This document shows positions 1 through 39,037 of a DNA stretch of 39,037 nucleotides, one piece after another. The position numbers and the translations under genes were made by a program. Every line of letters begins with the position of its first letter. Position 1 is the stretch's first letter. The stretch is taken from the IMG/VR virus record IMGVR_UViG_2529293063_000017. One strand, written 5' to 3'. The stretch is from a virus. Taxonomy: Duplodnaviria; Heunggongvirae; Uroviricota; Caudoviricetes. The notes under the pieces were generated by a model. That model did not search any database, had not been told where the DNA came from, and saw nothing but the letters and a program-made list of their open reading frames with translations.

Positions 1-1005
1 TTAATCCCCCGTGGACACTGCGTGGACACTTACGCCACCTTTCAGCGGATTAAGGGCCACCGCATCCTGCAGGTAATCCGGTGCAAAATGCGCATATGCC
101 ATTGTTTGCTGAATGGTTGCGTGACCAAGAATCTTCTGAAGCGCAATAATGTTTCCTCCGTTCATCACAAAATGGCTGGCGAACGTATGCCGCAGCACAT
201 GTGCAGCCTGGCCTTTTGGTAAATCGGGCTTAACTCTTTTCAGCGCCAGGCAGAATTCCCGGTACTTCACCTCAAACAAGCTGCCTGTTTCTCTGGTTTT
301 GATCGCCTCACAAACTGCCTGCGAAATTGGCACTGTTCTCTTCCGGCCATTTTTGGTTTCAAGAAACGTTACACGGTTATGAACTATCTGTTCACCACGA
401 AGCTTACAAGCTTCACTCCAGCGCGCCCCTGTGCTTAAACACAAAAGCGCAACACGCCAGTAGTCGCCCTCCAGTGTATCGAGCAATAGCGCCACTTCCT
501 TCTGTGACAGGAACGCCATTTCTCGTGGAGATACATAAAGAATAGAAATTCCCCTTACTGGATGTTCTGCATCCCAAAGACCTATTTTTTTCAGCACGGT
601 AAACATTCCGGATAACCGATTCATGTACCTGTTAGCAGATGACGGTTTCAATCCTTCAGCTATCTTTTGAGAACGCCACGCGATAATTTTCAGCTTATCA
701 AGATCCACAGCCTGCATATCAGCGCCAAGCTCATTAATTATGTTGCGCAGTTGTTTTCGGTCTTCTTCCGCCTTACGCCTGTGCTGGCCGTGATACATCC
801 ACCACAACTCAAGCAAATCATTTAGCGTTCGACGATCACGGTAGCCCTGTATATATTCCCGCTTTTCAGCGTTCGCCATGATGTAGCGTTCAGTGGCCAC
901 CGCTACCGATTTTTTGTCAAATACCTTACGCACGCGCTTTCCCTTGCGTCCGTTCGGCCTGATGTCCAGCAAATAACGACCATCTTCGAGCTTCTTAATC
1001 GACAT
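1..1005 (-). CDS. int: Tyrosine-type phage integrase (P2 Int-like)
   Basis: 339-aa ORF track entry; ATG at 1005 gives MSIKKLEDGRY...; the C-terminal region has the tyrosine recombinase pattern (...HVLRHTFASHF...LGHATIQQTMAYAHF); position next to the C repressor as in P2. Confidence 0.9.
   Translation of the reverse strand: MSIKKLEDGRYLLDIRPNGRKGKRVRKVFDKKSVAVATERYIMANAEKREYIQGYRDRRTLNDLLELWWMYHGQHRRKAEEDRKQLRNIINELGADMQAVDLDKLKIIAWRSQKIAEGLKPSSANRYMNRLSGMFTVLKKIGLWDAEHPVRGISILYVSPREMAFLSQKEVALLLDTLEGDYWRVALLCLSTGARWSEACKLRGEQIVHNRVTFLETKNGRKRTVPISQAVCEAIKTRETGSLFEVKYREFCLALKRVKPDLPKGQAAHVLRHTFASHFVMNGGNIIALQKILGHATIQQTMAYAHFAPDYLQDAVALNPLKGGVSVHAVSTGD
11..35. repeat. Candidate attL core (direct repeat of 37857-37880)
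   Basis: gtggacactgcgtggacacttacgc; shares the 13-bp core cactgcgtggaca and flanking bases with 37857-37880; overlaps the int 3' end as expected for P2-type attP. Confidence 0.4.
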
Positions 1006-1101
1006 TACGAAGCCCTCCAATGAACCGCTCTACAATTTCTCCAGCCTCTTTCCAGCAATAATCAGACCAGACAAAAAGCAGGTCTAACCAGTTTTCTGGC
1101 C

Positions 1102-5138: not shown

Positions 5139-7946
5139 ATGACGGCAGAGTACATCAGGGACTGGCAACAACCGCGCCACGCAGTGGGGCGTGAAGGAAC
5201 GGGGATCCCCGCTCCTGAATCCGCGCTTTCCTCCTGGCTGGATGCCTACCGGGTAGAGAACGAGCGCTGCCAGGAAATGGCTGATGCGGCGTTCTCCGCA
5301 ACGCCGCTGGGCAACCTGATTAATAAAAGCCTGGACGCACAGGAAAAACAGGACAAAACCATCACACTGGCAGGAGACGCCAGAAAACAGGCACGCGGCG
5401 CGGTGGATGAAGCCATGGCTTCGCTGCGCCTGCTGCCGTCCTATCTGCGCGATCCGCTTATTCGCCACCTCTCCTTCCTGCGCAAAAAACAGGAAGCCGA
5501 TCGTCAGAAAGGCAAAAAGAGCTGGCAGGCTGAACGCTACGCGCGCGGAAACCTGCGCAAAATATTCGAACGTCTGGAGCGCACCGATCACCGCTGGCTG
5601 ACACAGGGTTATCGCTCCCTTGCCGGACGCGAACGCCTGGATGATTTGCTTTACCTGCCGCAGCTCAACCAGCACCAGATACAGACGCTGGCCACCATGA
5701 CGGCGGCGATGTTCAGCAGCACCTTCGAAAAACTCTGCGATGGCTTTGGCGCGACCGATGGCGAACTGACCATGGATGTAACGCTGAAGGCGTATCAGAT
5801 GCTGGCCCGCATGGCGTTACACCTGCACGCCATGCCGCCACATTACGAAGCTCTGAACAAGAGCGATCCGGATACGGAACTGTTACCGGGCGCAATCCTT
5901 CGCCTGACCTGTGCGGAATGGTGGAAACGCAAACTGTGGCTGTTACGTTGCGAGTGGCGGGAAGAACAACTCCGCGCCGCCTGTCTGGTTTCCAGAAAAA
6001 CATCGCCCTATCTGAGCCAGGACGCGTTAAGCGAGTTTCGCGCACAGCGCGAGAAAACACGCGATTTCCTGAAAAGTTTCATGCTGGAAAACGAAGACGG
6101 GTTCACGATTGATCTCGAGACAGTGTATTACGCGGGAGTAAGTAACCCGGTTCACCGTAAGGCAGAAATGATGGCCACCATGAAGGGGCTGGAACTTCTG
6201 GCCGAAGCCCGTGGCGACAAAGCGGTGTTTCTGACCATCACCTGCCCGTCAAAATACCACGCCACAACAGAGAACGGTCATCCGAATCCCAAATGGAACG
6301 GGGCCACCATGCGCGACTCCAGCGATTACCTGGTTAACACGTTTTTTGCGGCGGTCCGCAAGAAACTGAACCGCGACGGCCTGCGCTGGTATGGCATCCG
6401 CACGGTGGAGCCTCACCATGACGGCACCGTGCACTGGCATATGATGGTCTTTGCTCATCCGGAAGAAATCGACACCATTGTGTCCCACACCCGCGATATT
6501 GCCATTCAGGAAGATCGTCACGAGCTGGGTGATGATATTACCCCACGCTTTAAGGCGGAGTACGTCGACGGCTCAAAAGGCACGCCAACCAGCTACATCG
6601 CCACCTACATCGGAAAGAACCTGGACAGCCGCGCCGTAGATGGCATCGACCCGAAAACGGGCAAGCCACGCGTTGACCACGAAACCGGAAAATCAATGGC
6701 CGAGAGCGTGGAACGCGCCATCGGCTGGGCGCGCCTTCACCGTGTCCGCCAGTTCCAGTTCTTTGGTATCCCCTCCCGTCAGGTGTGGCGTGAACTCCGC
6801 CGCCTTGCCAGCCAGATGGCACGCAACCCGGAAGGCCCGCAACGGCTGAAGGATGACGCAATGGATGCGGTACTCGCTGCCGCTGATGCCGGATGTTTTG
6901 CCACCTACATAGAGAAACAGGGCGGCGTACTTGTTCCACGCCAAGACTACCTGATTCGCACCGCCTACGACCTCGCAGATGAGCTGAACGATTACGGCGA
7001 ACAGAGCGTACAGATTTACGGGATCTGGTCGCCGCTCATCGGGGAGTCTTCCCGCGTATGCACGCATCCGGATAACTGGAAGCTGGTAAGACGCAAACCG
7101 GAAGCGGAAGACAGCTCCCACGAAAATGGTTTTGACCTTCAGGGCGGCCCTGCCGCCCCTTGGACTCGTGGCAATAACTGTCCCCGTGTACAGGAAACGG
7201 ACAACAACGGGACAGAACAGCCGGAAGAACGGCCAGCACCGTGGCCGCAGCTTCCTGACGGCGTTGACGTGAATGAATGGATGCGCTCACTGAAACGGCA
7301 CGAACGCCGGGCGCTGATGCGTTCGCTGCGTGACAAACAGGCAAAAAACAGCAGTGATGAAATGCAGAACTGGACACAGAGCCGCAAACAGCCACAGCCT
7401 TTGCCTGATAACCACGAGTTACTCGCTAAAGAATGGCGGGAGTCTGCTGAATCTCTCGGCCTGCATATCGGTGAACAGCAGATGCAGCACCTGTTACGGG
7501 GCGGCAGTCTGTACGTTGACGGCAGCATCATTGCACCGCAGGGATTTGAAATTGTACGCAAACCGGATACCCGCCCGGACAGCCGAATCACGCAGCTCTG
7601 GCAACGCCTGAGTCGTAATCACGGCGTAAGCAGCACGGAGATCCGCCATAACCCGGTCGCCAGCTATCTGGAACAACTAGAGGCATCAGACCCTGAAGCC
7701 GCCGCACGCCTGGCATCCACACTTCAGCAAGACCAGAACACCATGAAAACACCAGTTACCGTACTTTCTGACATGCTGCGCGCCATCCGCGACGCAGAGC
7801 ACGCACAGAGAATCAGTGAAACCACTGAACGCGCCCGCCGCAAAGCAGACCTGCTGCGGGGTGGCCTGAGCAGTGGAAACAAAAAACAGACAAAAACGGG
7901 ATTCACAAATCCCGTAAATGAGCAAAAAACGCGCCGCGATATATGA
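5139..7946 (+). CDS. A: Replication initiation endonuclease (P2 gpA-like, rolling-circle)
   Basis: 935 aa; contains a ...VHWHMMVFAH... histidine motif and ...SYIATYIGKN... paired-tyrosine motif typical of gpA-family initiators; the C-terminal part is longer than I recall for P2 gpA. Confidence 0.9.
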   Translation: MTAEYIRDWQQPRHAVGREGTGIPAPESALSSWLDAYRVENERCQEMADAAFSATPLGNLINKSLDAQEKQDKTITLAGDARKQARGAVDEAMASLRLLPSYLRDPLIRHLSFLRKKQEADRQKGKKSWQAERYARGNLRKIFERLERTDHRWLTQGYRSLAGRERLDDLLYLPQLNQHQIQTLATMTAAMFSSTFEKLCDGFGATDGELTMDVTLKAYQMLARMALHLHAMPPHYEALNKSDPDTELLPGAILRLTCAEWWKRKLWLLRCEWREEQLRAACLVSRKTSPYLSQDALSEFRAQREKTRDFLKSFMLENEDGFTIDLETVYYAGVSNPVHRKAEMMATMKGLELLAEARGDKAVFLTITCPSKYHATTENGHPNPKWNGATMRDSSDYLVNTFFAAVRKKLNRDGLRWYGIRTVEPHHDGTVHWHMMVFAHPEEIDTIVSHTRDIAIQEDRHELGDDITPRFKAEYVDGSKGTPTSYIATYIGKNLDSRAVDGIDPKTGKPRVDHETGKSMAESVERAIGWARLHRVRQFQFFGIPSRQVWRELRRLASQMARNPEGPQRLKDDAMDAVLAAADAGCFATYIEKQGGVLVPRQDYLIRTAYDLADELNDYGEQSVQIYGIWSPLIGESSRVCTHPDNWKLVRRKPEAEDSSHENGFDLQGGPAAPWTRGNNCPRVQETDNNGTEQPEERPAPWPQLPDGVDVNEWMRSLKRHERRALMRSLRDKQAKNSSDEMQNWTQSRKQPQPLPDNHELLAKEWRESAESLGLHIGEQQMQHLLRGGSLYVDGSIIAPQGFEIVRKPDTRPDSRITQLWQRLSRNHGVSSTEIRHNPVASYLEQLEASDPEAAARLASTLQQDQNTMKTPVTVLSDMLRAIRDAEHAQRISETTERARRKADLLRGGLSSGNKKQTKTGFTNPVNEQKTRRDI

Positions 7947-7992
7947 AGCGCGCACAAAACAGGCGAAAACGGGATTTAAAAATCCCGTAAAC
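7893..7992. repeat. Two 26-bp direct repeats, each an 8-bp perfect palindrome with 4-bp spacer; candidate operator/centromere (parC-like)
   Basis: 7893-7918 aaaacgggattcacaaatcccgtaaa and 7967-7992 aaaacgggatttaaaaatcccgtaaa (24/26 identical); the first lies in the last codons of A, the second in the intergenic region just upstream of the parM-like gene. Confidence 0.5.
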
Positions 7993-8022
7993 GATTAATT
8001 AATCAACATAAGGAAAAGCTAC

Positions 8023-8982
8023 ATGAAAATTTGTATCGACGACGGCTCCACCAACATCAAGCTGGCATGGACTGAGAACGGCGAATGCCGCAACGCCATC
8101 AGCCCGAACAGCTTCAAGTCGGAATGGTCTGCGCCGTTCGGTGTCACGCAGCCCGCGAACTACATGCTTGATGGCGTGCGCTATGGTTTTGATCCGGTCA
8201 GCGATCGCTTTGTCCAGACGACCGACACGCAATACCAGTACAGCGATGTGAATGTCATTGCCATTCATCACGCGCTGGTCAAATCAGGCATCACGCCACA
8301 GGAAGTGGATGTGGTTGTCACCCTGCCACTGAGCGAGTATTTCGACACAAACGCACAGCCGGATATGACCAACATCAACCGCAAAAAAGCGAACGTCATG
8401 CGCCCGGTGGAGTACCAGAACGGTGAGGCATTCACTATCCGTAACGTGCGGGTTATGCCTGAATCCATTCCGGCTGGCTTTAAGGCACTGGCTAACATGA
8501 GTCCGTTTGAATCCCTGCTGATTGTGGATTTAGGCGGAACCACGCTGGATGTGGCAAAGGTTCAGGGGCAACTGGCAGGTATCAGCCAGGTGTTTTGCGA
8601 TCCACACGTAGGCGTTTCTCTGATGGCCGATGCCGTACTGTCGGTGATGGCCACTAACGGTATGCGCACCAGTCACCACATCGCCAATACCATTATCGAA
8701 CATCGCCATGATGAAGCCTGGCTGCGCCAGCACATCCACAATGACGCGCATTACGCCAGCCTGATGGCGGTTATTCGTGAAAAGGAAGAAACACTGAAAC
8801 AACGCGTGATCCGCGCGCTGGCGGTTTTTTCGGGTTACGGGCGGGTGATGGTTGTCGGTGGCGGGGCGGAGATTGTGGCACCCGCTATCCGCGAAGCCTG
8901 CGGAGTTAATGCGACTTTCATCGCGGACGGGGTGCCACAGTTTGCTCTGGTTAATGGGCTGTACGCAATGGACAAGGAGTAA
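8023..8982 (+). CDS. parM: ParM/StbA-like actin-type segregation ATPase
   Basis: 319 aa; N-terminus MKICIDDGSTNIKLAW...ISPNSFKSEW...QYSDVNVIAIHHAL closely matches the plasmid R1 ParM N-terminal region as I recall it. Confidence 0.8.
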   Translation: MKICIDDGSTNIKLAWTENGECRNAISPNSFKSEWSAPFGVTQPANYMLDGVRYGFDPVSDRFVQTTDTQYQYSDVNVIAIHHALVKSGITPQEVDVVVTLPLSEYFDTNAQPDMTNINRKKANVMRPVEYQNGEAFTIRNVRVMPESIPAGFKALANMSPFESLLIVDLGGTTLDVAKVQGQLAGISQVFCDPHVGVSLMADAVLSVMATNGMRTSHHIANTIIEHRHDEAWLRQHIHNDAHYASLMAVIREKEETLKQRVIRALAVFSGYGRVMVVGGGAEIVAPAIREACGVNATFIADGVPQFALVNGLYAMDKE

Positions 8983-8987
8983 ACCAA

Positions 8988-9301
8988 TGACGACATCAAC
9001 CAGACGGATAAGTTTCTATCTGAAGCCAGACGCCGTCAAGAGTGAACAAGAGGCGTGCAATTACCTCGATAGCCTGCCAGCCTCCGAACGCAGCCGCGCG
9101 CAACGCGCGGCCTTTCTGGCCGGACTGGCACTCATAAAACGCAACCCAGCATTTGCCTACTGGATGGCCGAATGGCCAGAGGATAACCTCCCCTTCAATA
9201 CCATTAGCACCAAGGAAACATACCAAGATAATCCGCCTAGCGGAATTGAATGCAATTTTTATAAAATAAAAAAGAATATTCAGACCTTATTCCCTGAATA
9301 A
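8988..9301 (+). CDS. parR: ParR/StbB-like centromere-binding adaptor
   Basis: ATG at 8988 with RBS aaggag; MTTSTRRISFYLKPD...LDSLPASERSRAQRAAFLAGLAL resembles R1 ParR (...RRTIAFKLNPD...LDSIPQGERSRLNRAALTAGLAL); sits downstream of parM as in parMRC loci. Confidence 0.75.
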
Positions 9302-9350
9302 TCTGATAATTGAATTTGAACTAATAAAACACATACCAACACATCATTCT

Positions 9351-9372
9351 GGCACCCTTGCTAACAGGGTGC
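9351..9372. terminator. Hairpin between convergent genes (possible bidirectional terminator)
   Basis: ggcaccct-tgctaac-agggtgcc, 8-bp stem; lies between the parR-like stop (9301) and the stop of the minus-strand membrane gene (9386); no clear U-tract. Confidence 0.35.
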
Positions 9373-9385
9373 CAATGATTTCAAA

Positions 9386-10228
9386 TCATGATGAAATTGC
9401 CGAAGTTTTTTTATCGTGCTGAAGTACCGCAAATGCCATCAAAACCTCAAGAGAATAGCGGCGATAATACTTAACAAAACCATAATAAAATACTCGAGAT
9501 GCAGCAAGAAAAAACAAGAAAAGAGGACCAAAAGGTAACAATCTGATATTTATATCTATTAAGTAAGATAGAGGGGCTAGACACATAATCAACCAGACTG
9601 AGGCGAGAAAAACGAATGTAATGTTTCTACAAAAACCATATAGAGCAACATAGTTTTGTATTTTCAACTGATGATTTTTCGAATGTTCATACACATAATG
9701 ATAAGCAAGACGAAAAAGATCTCCCCTCAACCCTTTGCGTCGATACAACGTAGAAACAGAAAAATTATTTATATAGCCATTTCGTATTTGCGGCCAAAAG
9801 GCCTTAATAAGTATAGGATGTAGTGTGGTTTTATGACACTCAGCTTTATCAAGAATTGATACAGGAAACAAAAAAACTCTACGAATAAAATTAAATATCT
9901 GGAATCCTGTACCACGGCGTTTTATTTTCAGGGGGTTTTTCGGGGAAAACAGATAAGTCGAAGGATATCCAAGCTTACTGTTCATGTATTTTTCAATTAA
10001 ACAGGATGATAGAATAGATATGAAGTGACCTAAAATATATGATAGAACGATCAATGTCACATACATAAACACACTTATTATTTCTTTATATTTCAAGATG
10101 TGGTTTAGAATACTCTCGACATAACCAGGGTTAATTTCAATAGAAAACAAAAAAAGGATAAACAGGAATAATCCACCTGGAATTAGATACCCCAAAAAGT
10201 CATAAAATGAAAACGGATTCTGTGTCAC
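9386..10228 (-). CDS. Polytopic membrane protein (about 4 TM segments), unknown family; accessory cargo
   Basis: 280 aa; hydrophobic helices near the N-terminus and C-terminus flanking a basic soluble segment; markedly AT-rich DNA compared with the phage backbone. Confidence 0.7.
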   Translation of the reverse strand: MTQNPFSFYDFLGYLIPGGLFLFILFLFSIEINPGYVESILNHILKYKEIISVFMYVTLIVLSYILGHFISILSSCLIEKYMNSKLGYPSTYLFSPKNPLKIKRRGTGFQIFNFIRRVFLFPVSILDKAECHKTTLHPILIKAFWPQIRNGYINNFSVSTLYRRKGLRGDLFRLAYHYVYEHSKNHQLKIQNYVALYGFCRNITFVFLASVWLIMCLAPLSYLIDINIRLLPFGPLFLFFLAASRVFYYGFVKYYRRYSLEVLMAFAVLQHDKKTSAISS

Positions 10229-10267
10229 ACTTCCCCCTGTGCTACTTGTAAATTAAAGAGTCAAACA

Positions 10268-10765
10268 TTATTTGTTTTTCCGTAAAGGATTAGCTTTCCA
10301 TCTTCTTACTAACCATTCGAATTCTTGATATGTAGTATCCGAATTAATGCTTTCTCTGATTGCTTTAATTAATGGCTCGGCAATATCATATGTCTCTACA
10401 ACTGTTGTGTAAGATGTTCTTTTTATCATTTTTTCATCATAAATACCTTCACGAATACTTACAGCAACTCGCTCGTAAAAATTTAAAATATATTGAAATT
10501 TTCGACGCTCGGCCATTTCCTCATCTGTTATTGTACAACCATCACAAGGAAAAACATAAGAACGAAATGATTTGCCTGAACGATGCACTTGTTTCAGGGT
10601 ATGCAATGACTCTATATATTGCATATCTTGCCGACTCTCAAAAAGAAAGTTAGCCGTTTGAGTTTTCTTTGCGGTACGCACATTGTAGATAATGGTTCCA
10701 ATGGCAACCAAAACGCCAAGCAGAACAATAGCATTGCTGATGATTTGTAGTGTTATTGGGTTCAT
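10268..10765 (-). CDS. Single-pass membrane-anchored protein (N-terminal TM plus about 130-aa cytoplasmic domain), unknown family; accessory cargo
   Basis: 165 aa; N-terminal ITLQIISNAIVLLGVLVAIGTIIY helix; AT-rich; co-oriented immediately upstream of 9386-10228, so a likely two-gene operon. Confidence 0.7.
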   Translation of the reverse strand: MNPITLQIISNAIVLLGVLVAIGTIIYNVRTAKKTQTANFLFESRQDMQYIESLHTLKQVHRSGKSFRSYVFPCDGCTITDEEMAERRKFQYILNFYERVAVSIREGIYDEKMIKRTSYTTVVETYDIAEPLIKAIRESINSDTTYQEFEWLVRRWKANPLRKNK

Positions 10766-10786
10766 CCTATTTCATCCATAAAAAAG

Positions 10787-10812
10787 GCGGGGAGCAAATC
10801 CCCGCCTCATTA
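10787..10812. other. GC-rich palindrome; terminator or cos-proximal element
   Basis: aaaaaaggcgggga-gcaaa-tccccgcctc; partial resemblance to the G-rich P2/186 cohesive-end sequence as I recall it; lies in the about 650-bp non-coding stretch next to Q where P2 carries cos. Confidence 0.3.
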
Positions 10813-10961
10813 GAGGTCAACGTAGCTTAGAAACCATCAAATTCATCATACATTTTTTTCATATCAACCCCCTCATAGAAATCATAACCACGTTTTGTGG
10901 TTTTTGTGACGCATAAACTACATCAAAGGCAAGCCACGGTCAAATATATAGGCATGCTTAC

Positions 10962-10988
10962 CTGCACAAAAGTGCACAAATTTGCACA
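10962..10988. repeat. Three tgcacaa direct repeats at exact 10-bp spacing (helically phased)
   Basis: tgcacaa at 10962, 10972 and 10982; upstream of the membrane-protein cassette promoter region and within the presumed cos-proximal non-coding DNA. Confidence 0.4.
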
Positions 10989-11413
10989 ATTTTTTTGAAC
11001 GACTTTTTGCCCTTCCGGCCCGCGTGGCGGCTGGAGCCGTCAAGGATCCGTGCATGCACAAAAAAACGCGCTTTTTCTGCGCGCAGGTGACGGGGGAACA
11101 GCCCGCGTTTCAGGGGGTAAATAGCATCCCCTGAACGATGTCGCAGCGACACAACAGAATGGCTGTATTTCTCACGCTGAGCGTGAAGAATACGTGAGGG
11201 ATTCTGATTTGATGGGGTGAAAGGTAAGGCCGTCAAAATCGCACTGAGGCGGCGAGAACATGCAGTCAACGCGGTGGGATTGCGTAAGAGTCTGACCGTC
11301 GATGGTGGCGATAAACTGGAAGGCGTCGTGAAATTATCTGACTGATACAGGAGCTGGAGAGTCGGGGCATAAATTTTTTATGCCCCGGCGAAGCAGCAGA
11401 CAAGCGAAGCGCG

Positions 11414-12460
11414 TCAGGATGTGGGCAGGGTGTCTAACAGTGCGTAAGGGTTAAAGCGGATCACCTCTTCGCCAAGCCAGTCATTGATGTGCTTCATGGC
11501 CTCCATGACGGGCATCAGCTCGTTAATTGCGTAAACCCGCGCGGCCTTCTCCACATCACCAAACGCACTTTTTTCACCCGGCATCGCCCCCATCAGTTGC
11601 GGCGGAACGCGGTGCGCAGCCAGCACATCATCACGGGATGCCGCCTTAACATTCATGAACTCATCCTTTGCGGTGATCTGCTGGAACGGCAAAATTTGCA
11701 CCCCCTCTTTGCCCCCGTTGGGCGCATGAATGAGCACGTTTTTAAACGCACCACCACCACGCGCACCCTGTAGCGTTTCTTTCAGGGAGTCCATGCTTTC
11801 GCGGTTTACCTGCGCTGCACCGATGTAGATGATGCACCCGGCGTGGGATCCGTTGTCGTAATACAGTTTTCTGAACATGTCCGCCGAATGAGACAGGCTG
11901 GCCGAGAGTAATGCGCCGAGATATTCCGGCATGCCGTAGATTTCCTGGTTAATGTCCGGATTCATCAGGTGGCACACTTTGCCTGGGCGAAACTGAAACG
12001 CATCCTTGCCATCCTGCACATACCACCATGATTCAAGATCGCTTCCGCGTCGCATGTATTTCGCCAGGGCGTGCCGTAATTTAAGCGGTTCGCCGAGCAT
12101 ATTGCTTCGAAGCTCAAGGAATGCGTTACCGAACACAAACCAGTCCAGCGCCAGCGCCGAGAAATCCTGCCGGGAAAGCAGCGGGTGCGGGATGTAGCAA
12201 CCGAGCAATACATTGCGCTTAAAGTAAAGCGCAGACTGATGCCAGGACGTTTGCCGGGCGGCTCTTGCCAGACCGTACCAGTCCACCGGGGTTTCATACC
12301 ACCGCCCGTTATCAGCACAGTACATATTGTCCAGCAGGTCATGCCCGGTCAGGCGATAAGGACCATCAAATGTGAATGCACTGAGCGATGATTCTTTCCT
12401 GAGCGCATCAGCGAGATCAATGCGTGAACTCATGCGCACTTTTTTATTTTTTCTGCTCAT
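11414..12460 (-). CDS. Q: Portal (capsid vertex) protein, gpQ-like
   Basis: 348 aa; size and position (leftward operon with the terminase, divergent from O) match P2 Q. Confidence 0.8.
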   Translation of the reverse strand: MSRKNKKVRMSSRIDLADALRKESSLSAFTFDGPYRLTGHDLLDNMYCADNGRWYETPVDWYGLARAARQTSWHQSALYFKRNVLLGCYIPHPLLSRQDFSALALDWFVFGNAFLELRSNMLGEPLKLRHALAKYMRRGSDLESWWYVQDGKDAFQFRPGKVCHLMNPDINQEIYGMPEYLGALLSASLSHSADMFRKLYYDNGSHAGCIIYIGAAQVNRESMDSLKETLQGARGGGAFKNVLIHAPNGGKEGVQILPFQQITAKDEFMNVKAASRDDVLAAHRVPPQLMGAMPGEKSAFGDVEKAARVYAINELMPVMEAMKHINDWLGEEVIRFNPYALLDTLPTS

Positions 12461-34731: not shown

Positions 34732-35790
34732 TTAAAAATTATTTATTATGTGTTCAGCTAAATGATCATACTCACCAGCCATCTCATTCATTAGTTCTAC
34801 CTGATTAACTGCCCATTGCCCCCGCCCACGAAGAGCATTCGTTGGCCTAACTCGAGACAAATAGCGAATAGGTATATTTTGAATAATACTATCAGGAGCC
34901 ATAACGTTGAGGTCCTCAATCTTTCCAACTGGTTCATAATCAGTAAAATCAGGAACCGCGTTGTAAGATGAAATCTGTGAAAGCTGAGGAAGCATTTTTT
35001 CCTCTATCGCTTTTCTTATTGAACGGTGATGAACTGCATCTGCACCAACCTCTTGTTTAACATCATTTTGCTTTCTCGTATCAAAACCATTGAATATCCA
35101 ACCGCCAAATTTAGGCATCCCTTTCTGAGATATAATATTATCTCGTGGGTTACCTGATAGATATCTTTCCTTGCCCTGCTCCCAATCACGTATAAATGAT
35201 GGCAACATCTCACCAATCAGCCCTACACAATATGAAGAGAATAAATCAGGTGTGCATGGAACTAAAAAATAGTCCGAGCAGTACAATGACGATCTAACAA
35301 GCGTATTGAATGAGGGAGGTAAATCTATTAGGACATAATCATAAATAACATCATTTTTCTCTGATGCTTTTTTTGTTATCAAATCTGGCAAAATAAAACG
35401 ATATAACCCTGCGCCACTTATAACATCAGTGCCGACATTTAAAATATCTGAAAATGTATTAAGCCAAAAGTCTCCAGGAACAATATGCAAAACGCCTGCA
35501 TCTGTCTTAGTCTTAGGTTCTGTTGTATAAACTTCACCTATAGTATTTTGTTGTATGTAAGGCAATGCAAATGCTTTAACCGTTTTTCCAAAAGGGAAAT
35601 CATCTGAAGGTTCCAATAACTCTGAAAATTCCTCATCACCAATACATGCAATTGAGAGATTACACTGGGGATCAAAGTCTATTAATAAAACACTTTTTCC
35701 TTTATCTGCTAGCGATACTGCAAGATTCCAAATTATAGTTGTTTTACCAACACCACCTTTGTTATTAAAAATCGATATAGTTTTTGTCAT
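34732..35790 (-). CDS. ParA/MinD-family Walker-type ATPase with about 100-aa C-terminal extension; solo accessory gene
   Basis: 352 aa; N-terminal deviant Walker A (MTKTISIFNNKGGVGKTT); AT-rich; no ParB-like partner gene nearby. Confidence 0.8.
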   Translation of the reverse strand: MTKTISIFNNKGGVGKTTIIWNLAVSLADKGKSVLLIDFDPQCNLSIACIGDEEFSELLEPSDDFPFGKTVKAFALPYIQQNTIGEVYTTEPKTKTDAGVLHIVPGDFWLNTFSDILNVGTDVISGAGLYRFILPDLITKKASEKNDVIYDYVLIDLPPSFNTLVRSSLYCSDYFLVPCTPDLFSSYCVGLIGEMLPSFIRDWEQGKERYLSGNPRDNIISQKGMPKFGGWIFNGFDTRKQNDVKQEVGADAVHHRSIRKAIEEKMLPQLSQISSYNAVPDFTDYEPVGKIEDLNVMAPDSIIQNIPIRYLSRVRPTNALRGRGQWAVNQVELMNEMAGEYDHLAEHIINNF

Positions 35791-36050: not shown

Positions 36051-36311
36051 ATGTTTCGTTGTCCGCTTTGTGGCGCATCTGCCCGTATCCGCACCAGTCG
36101 TCCTGAAAATGATTCAAACACCGTGCGGCAAAAGTATTACCAGTGTAACAATCTGGAATGCGGCGTATGCTTCTCAACACTGGAAGCTTTCCATAAATTC
36201 ACATCAAAACACGCCTCCGGCGCTCTCTCTTCAGAAGGTATCCCGTGGCATAAGCTGCCAGCTTCACACAGGGGAAACAATCAGATGAGTTTGCCTTTAC
36301 CTCAGAATTAA
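36051..36311 (+). CDS. ogr: Ogr/Delta-family zinc-finger late-gene transcription activator
   Basis: MFRCPLCGASARIRTSR...YYQCNNLECGVCFSTLEAF... resembles P2 Ogr (MFHCPLCQHAAHARTSR...YHQCQNVNCSATF...). Confidence 0.85.
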   Translation: MFRCPLCGASARIRTSRPENDSNTVRQKYYQCNNLECGVCFSTLEAFHKFTSKHASGALSSEGIPWHKLPASHRGNNQMSLPLPQN

Positions 36312-36502: not shown

Positions 36503-36643
36503 ATGTCGCAAAAATCGCTTACGGCCATCACGTTCTGCGTGACGGTAATCCTCATCATCTGGATGCTGCACGGTTCGCTGTGTGAAATACGGATGAGCTT
36601 CTGGGGAGCGGAGTTTGCGGCGTTCTTACAGTGTAAGCAGTAA
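36503..36643 (+). CDS. hok: Hok/Gef-family type I toxin (small membrane peptide)
   Basis: 46 aa, below the ORF-track length cut-off; MSQKSLTAITFCVTVILIIWMLHGSLCEIRMSFWGAEFAAFLQCKQ has the N-terminal TM helix and the SLCEIR...E.AAF... signature of Hok/Gef peptides; RBS ggagcaagcgctATG. Confidence 0.7.
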   Translation: MSQKSLTAITFCVTVILIIWMLHGSLCEIRMSFWGAEFAAFLQCKQ

Positions 36644-36878
36644 GGAAACCGCGACGGGGGAGTAATCCCCCGTCAATCGGTTGCCAGGGTAAGGTCGATA
36701 AGGCACCCTATATCACAGACATGAACAACAAGCCCGCAGCGTAAAAACTGCGGGTTTTCTTTTTGGTATCCCCATCCATAAGCAATAGGCATAACAGATC
36801 GATGCAATAAATCCGATCGATAAAAACGATCGATTTGTTATCATATCGGCAGCAGTAACCACACAAGAGGTGCCGCAA

Positions 36879-37076
36879 ATGACGCAAAATGTACGATGCA
36901 AAAATTGCAACAAACTACTTGCCCGCGCCTCATTTCACTACATTGAAATAAAATGTCCGCGCTGCAAAACACTTAACCAGATAACGAGAGCCATTGAGCA
37001 CCCCACACACATGAGGAGTTATGACCGTGGGGATCGCAATCCAGCACCAACCAGCACATACACCGGAACACACTAA
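36879..37076 (+). CDS. com: Com-like zinc-finger protein (Mu Com family translational activator)
   Basis: MTQNVRCKNCNKLLARASFHYIEIKCPRCKTLNQITRAIEHPT... resembles Mu Com (MKSIRCKNCNKLLFKADSFDHIEIRCPRCKRHIIMLNACEHPT...); its 3' end overlaps the start of the methyltransferase gene. Confidence 0.8.
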   Translation: MTQNVRCKNCNKLLARASFHYIEIKCPRCKTLNQITRAIEHPTHMRSYDRGDRNPAPTSTYTGTH

Positions 37077-37812
37077 GGTTTATCAGACTGACAATGCCAC
37101 GCTCTGTCGTGGGAATGCGCTGGAAATATTGCCGCTGATTGAGCCAGAAAGTATTGATGCCTTAATCACTGACCCGCCTTACAGTTCGGGCGCGACACAC
37201 AAGGCCGGACGCACCAACCAGGGCAGCCACGCAAAATATCTGAACGGCGAGAACCTTCATCGCTTTGATGGGTTTGCGGGTGAAAACATGGATGCCCGTT
37301 CGTGGGCTTACTGGACACAATTATGGATGGCACAGGCACACCGCGCAGTCAGGCCGGGCGGTTATGCCCTGGTATTTACTGACTGGCGACAACTGCCAGC
37401 TTTAACCGATGCGTTTCAGGCCAGCGGTTTTACATGGCGTGGAATCATTGCGTGGAACAAAGGAAGGGGGTCACGAACACCCCATACGGGGTATTTCCGG
37501 CATCAGTGCGAATACATCGTCTGGGGCAGTAAAGGCCATTTAGGTAAATCGCCTTCGGGACCGTTCGACGGCTGCATGACGTTCCCGGTTATCCCATCAA
37601 AGAAAATGCACCCGACCGGAAAACCAGAAGAACTTATGGCAGAACTGGTCAGGACTGCGAATAGTGGTGGAACAGTCCTTGATCCTTTTATGGGATCGGG
37701 AACAACGGGTGTTGCAGCACTGAAAGCAGGACGCAAATTTATTGGTATAGAAACCAGTGATCATTATTTTGATGTAGCAACACAACGGCTCAAAACGGCG
37801 ATCGAACCATAA
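37021..37812 (+). CDS. DNA methyltransferase (N6-adenine or N4-cytosine class, DPPY motif), orphan
   Basis: 263 aa; motif IV ...LITDPPYSSG... precedes motif I ...LDPFMGSGTTGVAA... (beta-class order); RBS gaggag before the ATG; no adjacent restriction endonuclease gene. Confidence 0.85.
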   Translation: MTVGIAIQHQPAHTPEHTKVYQTDNATLCRGNALEILPLIEPESIDALITDPPYSSGATHKAGRTNQGSHAKYLNGENLHRFDGFAGENMDARSWAYWTQLWMAQAHRAVRPGGYALVFTDWRQLPALTDAFQASGFTWRGIIAWNKGRGSRTPHTGYFRHQCEYIVWGSKGHLGKSPSGPFDGCMTFPVIPSKKMHPTGKPEELMAELVRTANSGGTVLDPFMGSGTTGVAALKAGRKFIGIETSDHYFDVATQRLKTAIEP

Positions 37813-38041: not shown

Positions 38042-39037
38042 ATGATACAACCTATTTCCGGCCCTCCTCCTGGGCAACCACCAGGTCAGGGAGATAACCT
38101 GCCGTCTGGCGCGGGCAATCAGCCTTTATCCAGTCAGCAACGTACTTCGCTGGAAAGCTTAATGACGAAAGTGACCTCACTGACGCAACAGCAAAGAGCA
38201 GAACTGTGGGCGGGTATCAGGCACGATATTGGTCTGTCGGGAGATTCCCCGCTGCTTTCGCGTCACTTCCCTGCCGCTGAGCATAATCTGGCGCAACGTC
38301 TGCTGGCCGCGCAAAAAAGCCATTCTGCCCGCCAGCTTTTAGCGCAATTAGGGGAGTATTTACGTCTGGGGAATAATCGTCAGGCGGTCACGGATTATAT
38401 CCGTCATAACTTTGGTCAGACGCCGCTGAATCAGCTCTCACCGGAGCAATTAAAAACCATTCTCACCCTGTTGCAGGAAGGGAAGATGGTTATTCCGCAA
38501 CCACAGCAGCGCGAGGCGACCGACCGTCCTTTATTACCGGCGGAGCACAATGCGCTAAAACAGCTGGTGACCAAACTTGCGGCGGCAACGGGGGAACCCA
38601 GCAAACAGATCTGGCAATCGATGCTGGAACTTTCCGGGGTGAAAGATGGCGAGTTAATTCCAGCGAAACTGTTTAACCATCTGGTGACCTGGTTGCAGGC
38701 GCGCCAGACGTTAAGCCAGCAAAATACGCCGACGCTGGAATCACTACAGATGGCGCTAAAACAACCTTTAGATGCCAGTGAACTGGCGGCGTTATCGGCA
38801 TATATCCAGCAAAAATATGGCCTTTCTGCGCAATCATCGCTTTCTTCTGCCCAGGCCGAGGATATTCTTAATCAGCTTTATCAACGGCGGGTTAAAGGGA
38901 TTGATCCGCGTGATATGCAACCGCTGCTTAATCCTTTTCCACCGATGATGGACACGTTGCAAAATATGGCAACGCGTCCCGCGCTGTGGATACTGTTAGT
39001 CGCGATTATCCTGATGCTGGTCTGGCTGGTTCGTTAG
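38042..39037 (+). CDS. Probable host-side gene: Pro/Gln-rich protein with internal repeats and a C-terminal TM anchor; function unknown
   Basis: 331-aa ORF beyond the candidate attR; N-terminal PPGQPPGQ segment; C-terminal ...ALWILLVAIILMLVWLVR hydrophobic tail. Confidence 0.5.
   Translation: MIQPISGPPPGQPPGQGDNLPSGAGNQPLSSQQRTSLESLMTKVTSLTQQQRAELWAGIRHDIGLSGDSPLLSRHFPAAEHNLAQRLLAAQKSHSARQLLAQLGEYLRLGNNRQAVTDYIRHNFGQTPLNQLSPEQLKTILTLLQEGKMVIPQPQQREATDRPLLPAEHNALKQLVTKLAAATGEPSKQIWQSMLELSGVKDGELIPAKLFNHLVTWLQARQTLSQQNTPTLESLQMALKQPLDASELAALSAYIQQKYGLSAQSSLSSAQAEDILNQLYQRRVKGIDPRDMQPLLNPFPPMMDTLQNMATRPALWILLVAIILMLVWLVR

Follow-up and report, generated by a model that had tools for sequence, protein, structure and literature searches.

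An R1-type ParMRC module in the backbone of an integrating P88-like prophage, predicted to act on the circular phage genome

The 39,037-nucleotide (nt) viral record IMGVR_UViG_2529293063_000017 from IMG/VR (the window, by which we mean this whole stretch of DNA) is an integrated P2-family prophage of the P88-like type (genus Xuanwuvirus). Directly after its replication gene A, it carries genes for the actin-like protein ParM and the adaptor ParR, preceded by a parC-like region of paired repeats. We hold, with moderate confidence, that these elements form a functional type II (ParMRC) DNA segregation module that belongs to the phage backbone and acts on the extrachromosomal circular phage genome, in a phage that is not a plasmid prophage. 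A close relative of a textbook plasmid segregation machine is under purifying selection in this integrating P2-family phage, which occurs in about 24% of complete Escherichia coli genomes, and in at least four other genera, diverged P2-like prophages have such a module in the same place.

The parM gene (positions 8023-8982, plus strand) encodes a 319-amino-acid (aa) actin-fold ATPase of the R1 type. Both Pfam domains were recovered, StbA_N with 273 bits (residues 1-157) and the ParM C-terminal domain with 231 bits (residues 159-316), and the protein belongs to the phage family phrog_691, labeled "partition protein". Residues 2-316 align with the sequence of the R1 ParM crystal structure (1mwk) at 313 bits and ~52% identity. 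In this alignment, the nucleotide-binding motifs IDDGSTNIK, MPESIPAG, DLGGTTLD, and GGGAE are in place, and the phosphate-1, catalytic Glu, phosphate-2, and adenosine motif classes are all kept. The two-domain actin-fold ATPase with intact nucleotide-binding motifs that defines R1-type systems is thus present. A putative ribosome-binding site (AAGGA, 8010-8014, plus strand) was read from the sequence 8 nt before the ATG.

The parR gene (8987-9301, plus strand) starts 5 nt past the parM stop, such that a small ribbon-helix-helix adaptor directly follows parM, as in R1-type loci. Its 104-aa product matches Plasmid_stab_B (101 bits) and phrog_2515 over the full length, and the match to the solved ParR of pB171 (2jd3) was weak (E=0.006). 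The N-terminal strand TRRISFYLKP (8999-9028) and the C-terminal motif KKNIQTLFPE (9269-9298) are connected by a variable linker. In an alignment of phage, IncI plasmid, D6, and R1-type ParRs (the R1-type reference was confirmed by 100% identity beside parM in >1000 plasmids), the N-terminal domain and a C-terminal (K/R)xN(A/I)xxhF/LP motif were common to all, and the phage motif aligned with the C terminus of R1-type ParR. Likewise, the N-terminal strand and the (K/R)xN(A/I)xxLFP motif are kept in every phage ParR allele and in distant relatives. The ParM-binding element of ParR is a C-terminal peptide (bioRxiv 10.1101/2025.06.27.661541), and the peptide YKIKKNIQTLFPE of the phage ParR is a candidate ParM partner. 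A single-sequence AF2 model of ParR had low confidence (pLDDT 43.6) and was not used. A preliminary description of the window, made from the letters alone, had taken the 319-aa protein for ParM and the following protein of about 104 aa for ParR; the profile searches agree and place both in the R1 type II family.

The parC-like region (7880-7994) consists of two 42-nt direct-repeat units with helically phased A-tracts. The copies (7880-7921 and 7953-7994) are 86% identical and lie 73 base pairs (bp) apart, start to start. Each copy contains a perfect palindrome with 8-bp arms, the dyad ACGGGATT-N4-AATCCCGT, with a GGG-N10-CCC core. Site 1 (7896-7915) is ACGGGATT-CACA-AATCCCGT, that is, ACGGGATTcacaAATCCCGT, and site 2 (7969-7988) is ACGGGATT-TAAA-AATCCCGT, that is, ACGGGATTtaaaAATCCCGT. 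Both are presumed ParR-binding sites, and site 2 is presumed to act as an operator as well. The dyad pattern occurs exactly twice in the 39-kb window, compared with 0.09 occurrences expected. The two 26-bp palindromic repeats that had been reported before the operon are real and form the core of the 42-nt direct repeat, and the first of them is, as had been stated, embedded in the end of gene A: dyad site 1 lies inside the last 17 codons of this gene, which ends at 7946. The AAA periodicity within 7880-7994 is 10.6 bp, a value reached by 0 of 500 shuffles, compared with 10.5 bp in R1-type parC. No tandem iterons of the R1 kind were detected by TRF in 7800-8030, and the sole match of an Rfam scan of 7000-11500 (E<=1) was a chance SorX hit far from the repeats.

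Close relatives are largely uninformative on these sites, as the whole A-parM junction is 96% identical among them. More distant loci, in which ParM is only 62-63% identical, provide comparative support for the parC-like interpretation. The window and the Hafnia and Plesiomonas loci each contain exactly one GGG-N10-CCC pair spaced 70-75 bp apart, with actual spacings of 72-73 bp, and in all three the two dyads precede the parM ATG by 125-131 and 52-59 nt. In a three-genus alignment of the upstream regions, the only conserved blocks were the dyad cores, the ribosome-binding site, and a ATTAATCAA box (7998-8006, plus strand) between the latter and site 2. In Hafnia, a 167-aa open reading frame (ORF) separates gene A from parM and the dyads stay with parM, which makes the sites a part of the par module and not of gene A or the gene A origin. 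The TRRISFYL strand is identical or nearly so in the ParRs of E. coli, Hafnia, and Plesiomonas.

The same comparison bears on whether the cassette might be a functionless relic of plasmid-phage recombination, with the palindromes acting as hairpins or terminators. The E. coli palindromes do fold into 8-bp hairpins (-10.7 kcal/mol, or about -11), site 1 is terminator-like on the minus strand, and truncated parM genes are found in some lineages. However, the corresponding hairpins in Hafnia and Plesiomonas are weak (3-4 bp stems, z-scores of -0.1 to -2.1), although both genera retain the GGG-N10-CCC dyads at the 72-73 bp spacing. As the dyads persist while the hairpin shrinks, conservation extends to the spaced dyad, the kind of target expected of a DNA-binding dimer, but not to any RNA or DNA hairpin. 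Furthermore, there is no U-tract on the plus strand, and no minus-strand gene runs into the sites. We therefore reject the hairpin or terminator reading of the palindromes. Purifying selection on parM and synteny across genera at 54-63% identity also speak against a relic, which we regard as highly improbable.

The arrangement of the locus is that of ParMRC of plasmid R1 (the parA locus, or StbA/StbB, found also on IncF and IncI plasmids), with the order repeats, parM, and parR. ParM is ~52% identical to its R1 counterpart over the full length and retains all ATPase motifs, ParR belongs to the same Pfam family and has an alignable C-terminal tail motif, and the repeat region is two lobed, with phased A-tracts and an AAATCCC half-site similar to the R1-type iteron AAAACAACCC. 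However, the R1 parC consists of two sets of five direct 11-bp iterons flanking a 39-bp promoter spacer (PMC2241845), whereas in the phage region a pair of inverted-repeat dyads with 73-bp spacing takes the place of a tandem array. For the parC hallmark of repeated ParR-binding sites that lie upstream of parM and overlap its promoter, the candidates are two dyads whose position is kept in three genera and whose number and orientation differ from those of R1. Further differences are a reduced linker, which shortens the phage ParR to 104 aa compared with 117 aa, a first site that overlaps with the last codons of a replication gene, and a carrier that is an integrating phage and not a low-copy plasmid.

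Purifying selection acts on parM: dN/dS among eight alleles ranged from 0 to 0.26, mostly about 0.05-0.15, and the ORF was unbroken in 75 of 80 IMG/VR loci. A megablast search with 7850-9310 found the cassette in 1303 of 5426 complete E. coli genomes (about 24%), including O157:H7 and ST131 lineages, and in 14 phage records, all of them P88-like (Xuanwuvirus). Gene A of this type reached >=80% coverage in 1321 E. coli genomes, and parMR did so in 1272 (about 96%), which makes the cassette near-core for this lineage. Among 384 phage records with a P2-type A protein, this ParM was confined to Xuanwuvirus; P2, 186, and the Klebsiella P2-like phages were without it.

Intermediate ParM relatives were found in Hafnia (62% identity), Plesiomonas (63%), Serratia (58%), and Enterobacter (54%). 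In all four genera they are located in P2-like prophages, between the Phage_GPA and portal genes, and are followed by a Plasmid_stab_B gene; the cargo past parR differs and includes HicAB, a KAP NTPase, or small ORFs. The portal proteins of these prophages are 30-46% and the GpA proteins 31-55% identical to those of the window, and ParM is therefore better conserved than the surrounding backbone. Plasmid ParMs are at most about 52% identical to the phage ParM, followed by an empty gap up to the prophage copies at 95-99%, which indicates that the phage genes represent an old lineage and no recent capture. A scan of genome contigs with the single protein returned near-identical copies only, and two IMG/VR scans enlarged the population sample and contributed few new lineages. 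In IMG/VR, P88-type parM genes (96-97% identical) were seen beside a very different gene A fragment (36%; locus L116) and beside a very different portal gene (30%; locus L117), indicating exchange of the par module among P2-like backbones that are otherwise diverged. A P88-like parM of the E. coli type (97% identity) was also present on a Firmicute-attributed contig titled Vagococcus sp. WN89Y (NZ_JBQPOM010000071.1, locus L006), which probably reflects contamination or a mislabeled assembly.

The parR gene is a recombination junction and mosaic in structure. At the nucleotide level, the window matches P88 at ~100% identity as far as 9030, after which identity falls abruptly (9031-9300 compared), which places the left edge of the variable cargo region within parR. 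ParR identity is 52-61% between alleles whose ParMs are 97-100% identical. Across 81 loci, two types of N-terminal domain and at least six unrelated linker classes were distinguished; nevertheless, the total length was 102-104 aa in 80 of the 81, and both terminal motifs were invariant. Were ParMR an accessory of phage replication, a hypervariable linker of constant length, together with the several alleles, might set specificity between co-resident relatives. ParR allele type was not correlated with variants of the dyad center.

The position at the edge of the variable region between gene A and the portal gene, the divergent ParR alleles beside a nearly invariant ParM, and the possibility of a separate, ParR-autoregulated promoter would all suit a cassette that serves the host or prophage in the lysogen, through incompatibility with or exclusion of relatives or plasmids, another defense-like role as part of the P2 A-Q hotspot, or some influence on the chromosomal locus. 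However, neither ParM nor ParR had a PADLOC match, and a cassette found in about 96% of the genomes with this gene A is near-core and not the variable cargo expected of a defense hotspot. For the same reasons, neither the exclusion role considered in the preliminary description nor a defense role found support. R1-type, IncI, and D6 partition loci have repeats that differ in sequence from the phage dyads, which makes cross-binding unlikely. Taking into account the lack of correlation between ParR alleles and dyad variants and the frequency of truncated parM in integrated copies, we consider a function in the lysogen to be quite improbable.

The window has the features of an integrating element. 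A tyrosine integrase gene occupies 1-1020 (minus strand), ogr lies at 36051-36311, the host gene flk (38042-39037) flanks the prophage, and Cox, integrase, gene A, and host flanks were all found. In E. coli NZ_CP147009.1, the same prophage type is located between pdxB and flk, the reported integration site of the P88-like Citrobacter phage phiSM (PMC6456863). Both phiSM and P88 have been described as integrating and inducible (PMC6456863, PMC5285337). Indeed, 1441 of the 1443 cassette places in complete E. coli genomes are chromosomal (99.9%). The earlier assignment to an integrative P2-like prophage was thus correct.

A phage-plasmid hybrid lifestyle was among the options of the preliminary description; P88-like phages would then be phage-plasmids, or have a stable plasmid-prophage state, with parMRC as their maintenance system. 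A plasmid-labeled circle of 34,461 bp in PLSDB (NZ_CP148288.1) is a complete attP-joined P88-like phage genome including the integrase gene, the prophage also carries a Hok/Gef toxin gene, the other R1 stability function, and the phage-plasmid D6 has a 48%-identical ParM. However, this was the one complete phage-sized circle among seven PLSDB matches (another small record is a linear 26.8-kb fragment), and almost all cassettes are chromosomal. No plasmid replicon was found in the prophage, whose sole replication module is the phage A/ori. An autonomous low-copy carrier was likewise not found, as the carrier sits in pdxB-flk with its own integrase and host flanks. Phage-plasmids of the P1, D6, N15, and SSU5 types, defined by extrachromosomal upkeep, a plasmid replicon, and usually no integrase, therefore differ from the element described here. 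The phage-plasmid or stable episomal lysogen is largely refuted by distribution, and we give it very little credence.

The StbA-type locus of the P1-like D6 resembles the phage locus in that its ParM is followed by a ParR-like gene and preceded by repeats, and the annotation of the D6 record cites similarity to "phage P88 StbA protein". In contrast, D6 is maintained as a plasmid, on which the locus has a classical partition role, and its repeats (TCTCAAATTTATCTCA, three copies) are unrelated to the GGG-N10-CCC dyads.

With its integrase, Cox, gene A, and host flanks, and with one attP-joined circle on record for such a phage, the prophage does conform to an integrating element with a transient circular replicating form, as known from the carriers of srpMRC and AlpAC. 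The premise that such elements need no partitioning, put forward together with the integrative lifestyle, was overstated in view of these two precedents (PMC4489591, PMC4446434). The module most plausibly acts during a transient episomal phase that follows infection or excision.

The segregation mechanism that we infer for the circular phage genome would begin with ParR dimers binding both dyads (7896-7915 and 7969-7988) through the ribbon-helix-helix strand TRRISFYL. As the dyads are 73 bp apart, or ~7 helical turns, they would lie on the same face of the DNA, and site 2 would probably double as an operator. The ParR C-terminal tail KKNIQTLFPE is expected to capture the ends of ATP-ParM filaments, the growth of which would drive sister phage circles apart. 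Since parMR and gene A share a strand, are separated by a 76-nt gap, and have no terminator-like site on the plus strand between the gene A stop and parM, parMR is expected to be expressed with the early (replication) operon, either after infection or after induction and excision. P2-type A-dependent rolling-circle replication yields monomeric circles, which would be plasmid-like substrates for ParMRC. The phage could benefit in that circles would be spread and kept within a cell that continues to grow or divide, so that its descendants could be lysogenized, as proposed by analogy to srpMRC on SXT/R391. Alternatively or additionally, replication or packaging could become more efficient, as with AlpAC for CGP3.

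Several points weigh against a segregation module. A lytic cycle that ends in lysis leaves no obvious value for faithful segregation to daughter cells, and the 34,461-bp circular record may represent induced replicative DNA from spontaneous induction. Binding, filament formation, and phenotype of the phage ParMR are predictions from sequence, and the timing of expression is deduced from gene order. The dyads could be mainly an operator, as there are only two of them compared with ten iterons in R1 (PMC2241845). A sigma-70 promoter scan upstream of parM found no consensus site; TTTAAA (7975-7980), in the center of site 2, is a possible -35 element and allows a weak TTTAAA-N17-ATTAAT promoter reading, and the ATTAATCAA box is possibly a -10 element. 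The repeat layout also differs in the Serratia and Enterobacter relatives, in which the ParR strand is NRKISFYL and the upstream region carries a different long inverted repeat. Finally, shortened ParMs of 229 aa (649 members) and 188 aa (555 members) form large clusters, indicating that parM is dispensable for keeping the integrated prophage. In these clusters, parM has been inactivated in some widely sampled E. coli lineages.

Two experimentally studied systems provide precedents for partition-type loci on normally integrated elements. srpMRC, a type II actin-type partition locus, partitions the excised SXT/R391 element and is expressed only with excision (PMC4489591). It acts on a transient, rolling-circle-replicating excised circle and is coexpressed with mobility functions, as we would expect of the phage locus. 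However, SrpM and SrpR are distant from R1 ParM and ParR, and SrpR has no recognizable domain, whereas the phage proteins are bona fide members of the R1 family. Moreover, the function of srpMRC has been shown experimentally and its host element is an integrative and conjugative element (ICE) and not a phage, while the function of the phage locus is predicted.

The second precedent, AlpAC/alpS of the Corynebacterium glutamicum prophage CGP3 (PMC4446434, PMC5539076), likewise combines an actin-like protein and a DNA-binding adaptor on an integrated prophage. The adaptor sites are in the upstream region of the operon itself, as are the dyads of the phage locus. The alp genes are induced early, and AlpAC connects actin-like filaments with the circular phage DNA, the efficient replication of which requires AlpAC (PMC4446434). 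In contrast to the phage locus, AlpAC belongs to another actin-like family, the host is Gram positive, and the adaptor gene comes first. The need for AlpC in efficient replication was shown in CGP3, whereas the P88-like counterpart is known from its genes.

In a different reading, ParM and ParR have been repurposed as helpers of P2-type replication and form a scaffold that would localize or stimulate the rolling-circle replication driven by A, or the packaging of monomeric circles; the dyads would then be chiefly an operator for autoregulation. Even where P2-like lineages have diverged deeply, parMR always directly follows the HUH endonuclease gene A or its module, there are two dyads only, and site 2 overlaps the possible -35 element. 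The requirement for AlpAC in efficient CGP3 DNA replication (PMC4446434) points the same way, as does the finding that TraI, an HUH relaxase, is a binding partner of R1 ParM and ParR and is stimulated by them (PMC4949242). However, this support is indirect, and plain partition explains the kinship of ParM to the R1 motor and the retained ParR tail motif equally well. Furthermore, the divergence of ParM is uncoupled from that of gene A (Serratia and Enterobacter are 74% identical in ParM and 31% in A). We therefore consider such repurposing unlikely. A broader form of the idea, in which ParMR is an integral accessory of the rolling-circle module in a wide and deeply diverged P2-like set, with filament and adaptor organizing or stimulating the GpA-dependent replication of circles and perhaps their delivery to packaging, is offered by the same analogies as a tentative proposal, possible but doubtful.

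The genes themselves are not new. RefSeq, phage records, and PHROGs all contain annotations of them (the PGAP labels read "plasmid segregation protein ParM" and "plasmid partitioning/stability family protein"), and partition-type modules on integrative elements are known as well. In the searchable literature, no paper was found that connects Peduoviridae or P2-like phages with ParM or examines their ParMRC by function or comparison: the phiSM paper only lists the gene as cargo (PMC6456863), and phages are absent from a 2025 study of "genome-encoded ParMs". Many "chromosome-encoded ParMs" may in fact be prophage genes. If the module does partition or organize the extrachromosomal phage genome, these phages would be a second class of integrative element beside SXT/R391 and a Gram-negative example beside CGP3, and the view that temperate elements need plasmid-like functions during short episomal phases would be strengthened. 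If, instead, it is an accessory of replication, a phage cytoskeleton would operate in roughly one in four E. coli strains. Both P88 and phiSM can be induced and plated on E. coli K-12, which makes the question accessible to standard genetics.

The remaining features of the window are those of a P88-like prophage. Gene A (5139-7946, plus strand) encodes a P2-type HUH rolling-circle endonuclease (Pfam Phage_GPA, 436 bits; phrog_91). The integrase gene is followed by portal, terminase, capsid, and tail genes and then by gpD. Past parR, the A-portal hotspot holds a cargo cassette of two genes with 30-40% GC (9386-10765, minus strand), encoding a 280-aa multipass membrane protein (phrog_12528, with a weak PADLOC match to Csx27) and a DUF4760 protein (phrog_2284). 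A joint function of parMR with this membrane cassette had been suggested, but we reject a link in view of composition, orientation, and replacement: the cassette is AT-rich, convergent with parMR, and exchanged for HicAB, a KAP NTPase, or small ORFs in relatives that keep parMR. The membrane and DUF4760 proteins could be an uncharacterized defense or exclusion pair.

A second cargo site between gpD and ogr contains an orphan ParA/MinD-type P-loop ATPase (34732-35790, minus strand; Pfam AAA_31; phrog_164, "ParA-like partition protein"), beside which no ParB-like partner was seen. The Hok/Gef toxin (36503-36643; 46 aa; Pfam 30 bits) is encoded at the right prophage end; a Sok RNA was not found at Rfam thresholds. 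Together with parMRC, the toxin gene means that the phage has homologues of both R1 stability loci, parA (parMRC) and parB (hok/sok). The toxin gene is followed by genes for a Com zinc-ribbon regulator and a DNA methyltransferase (36870-37812).

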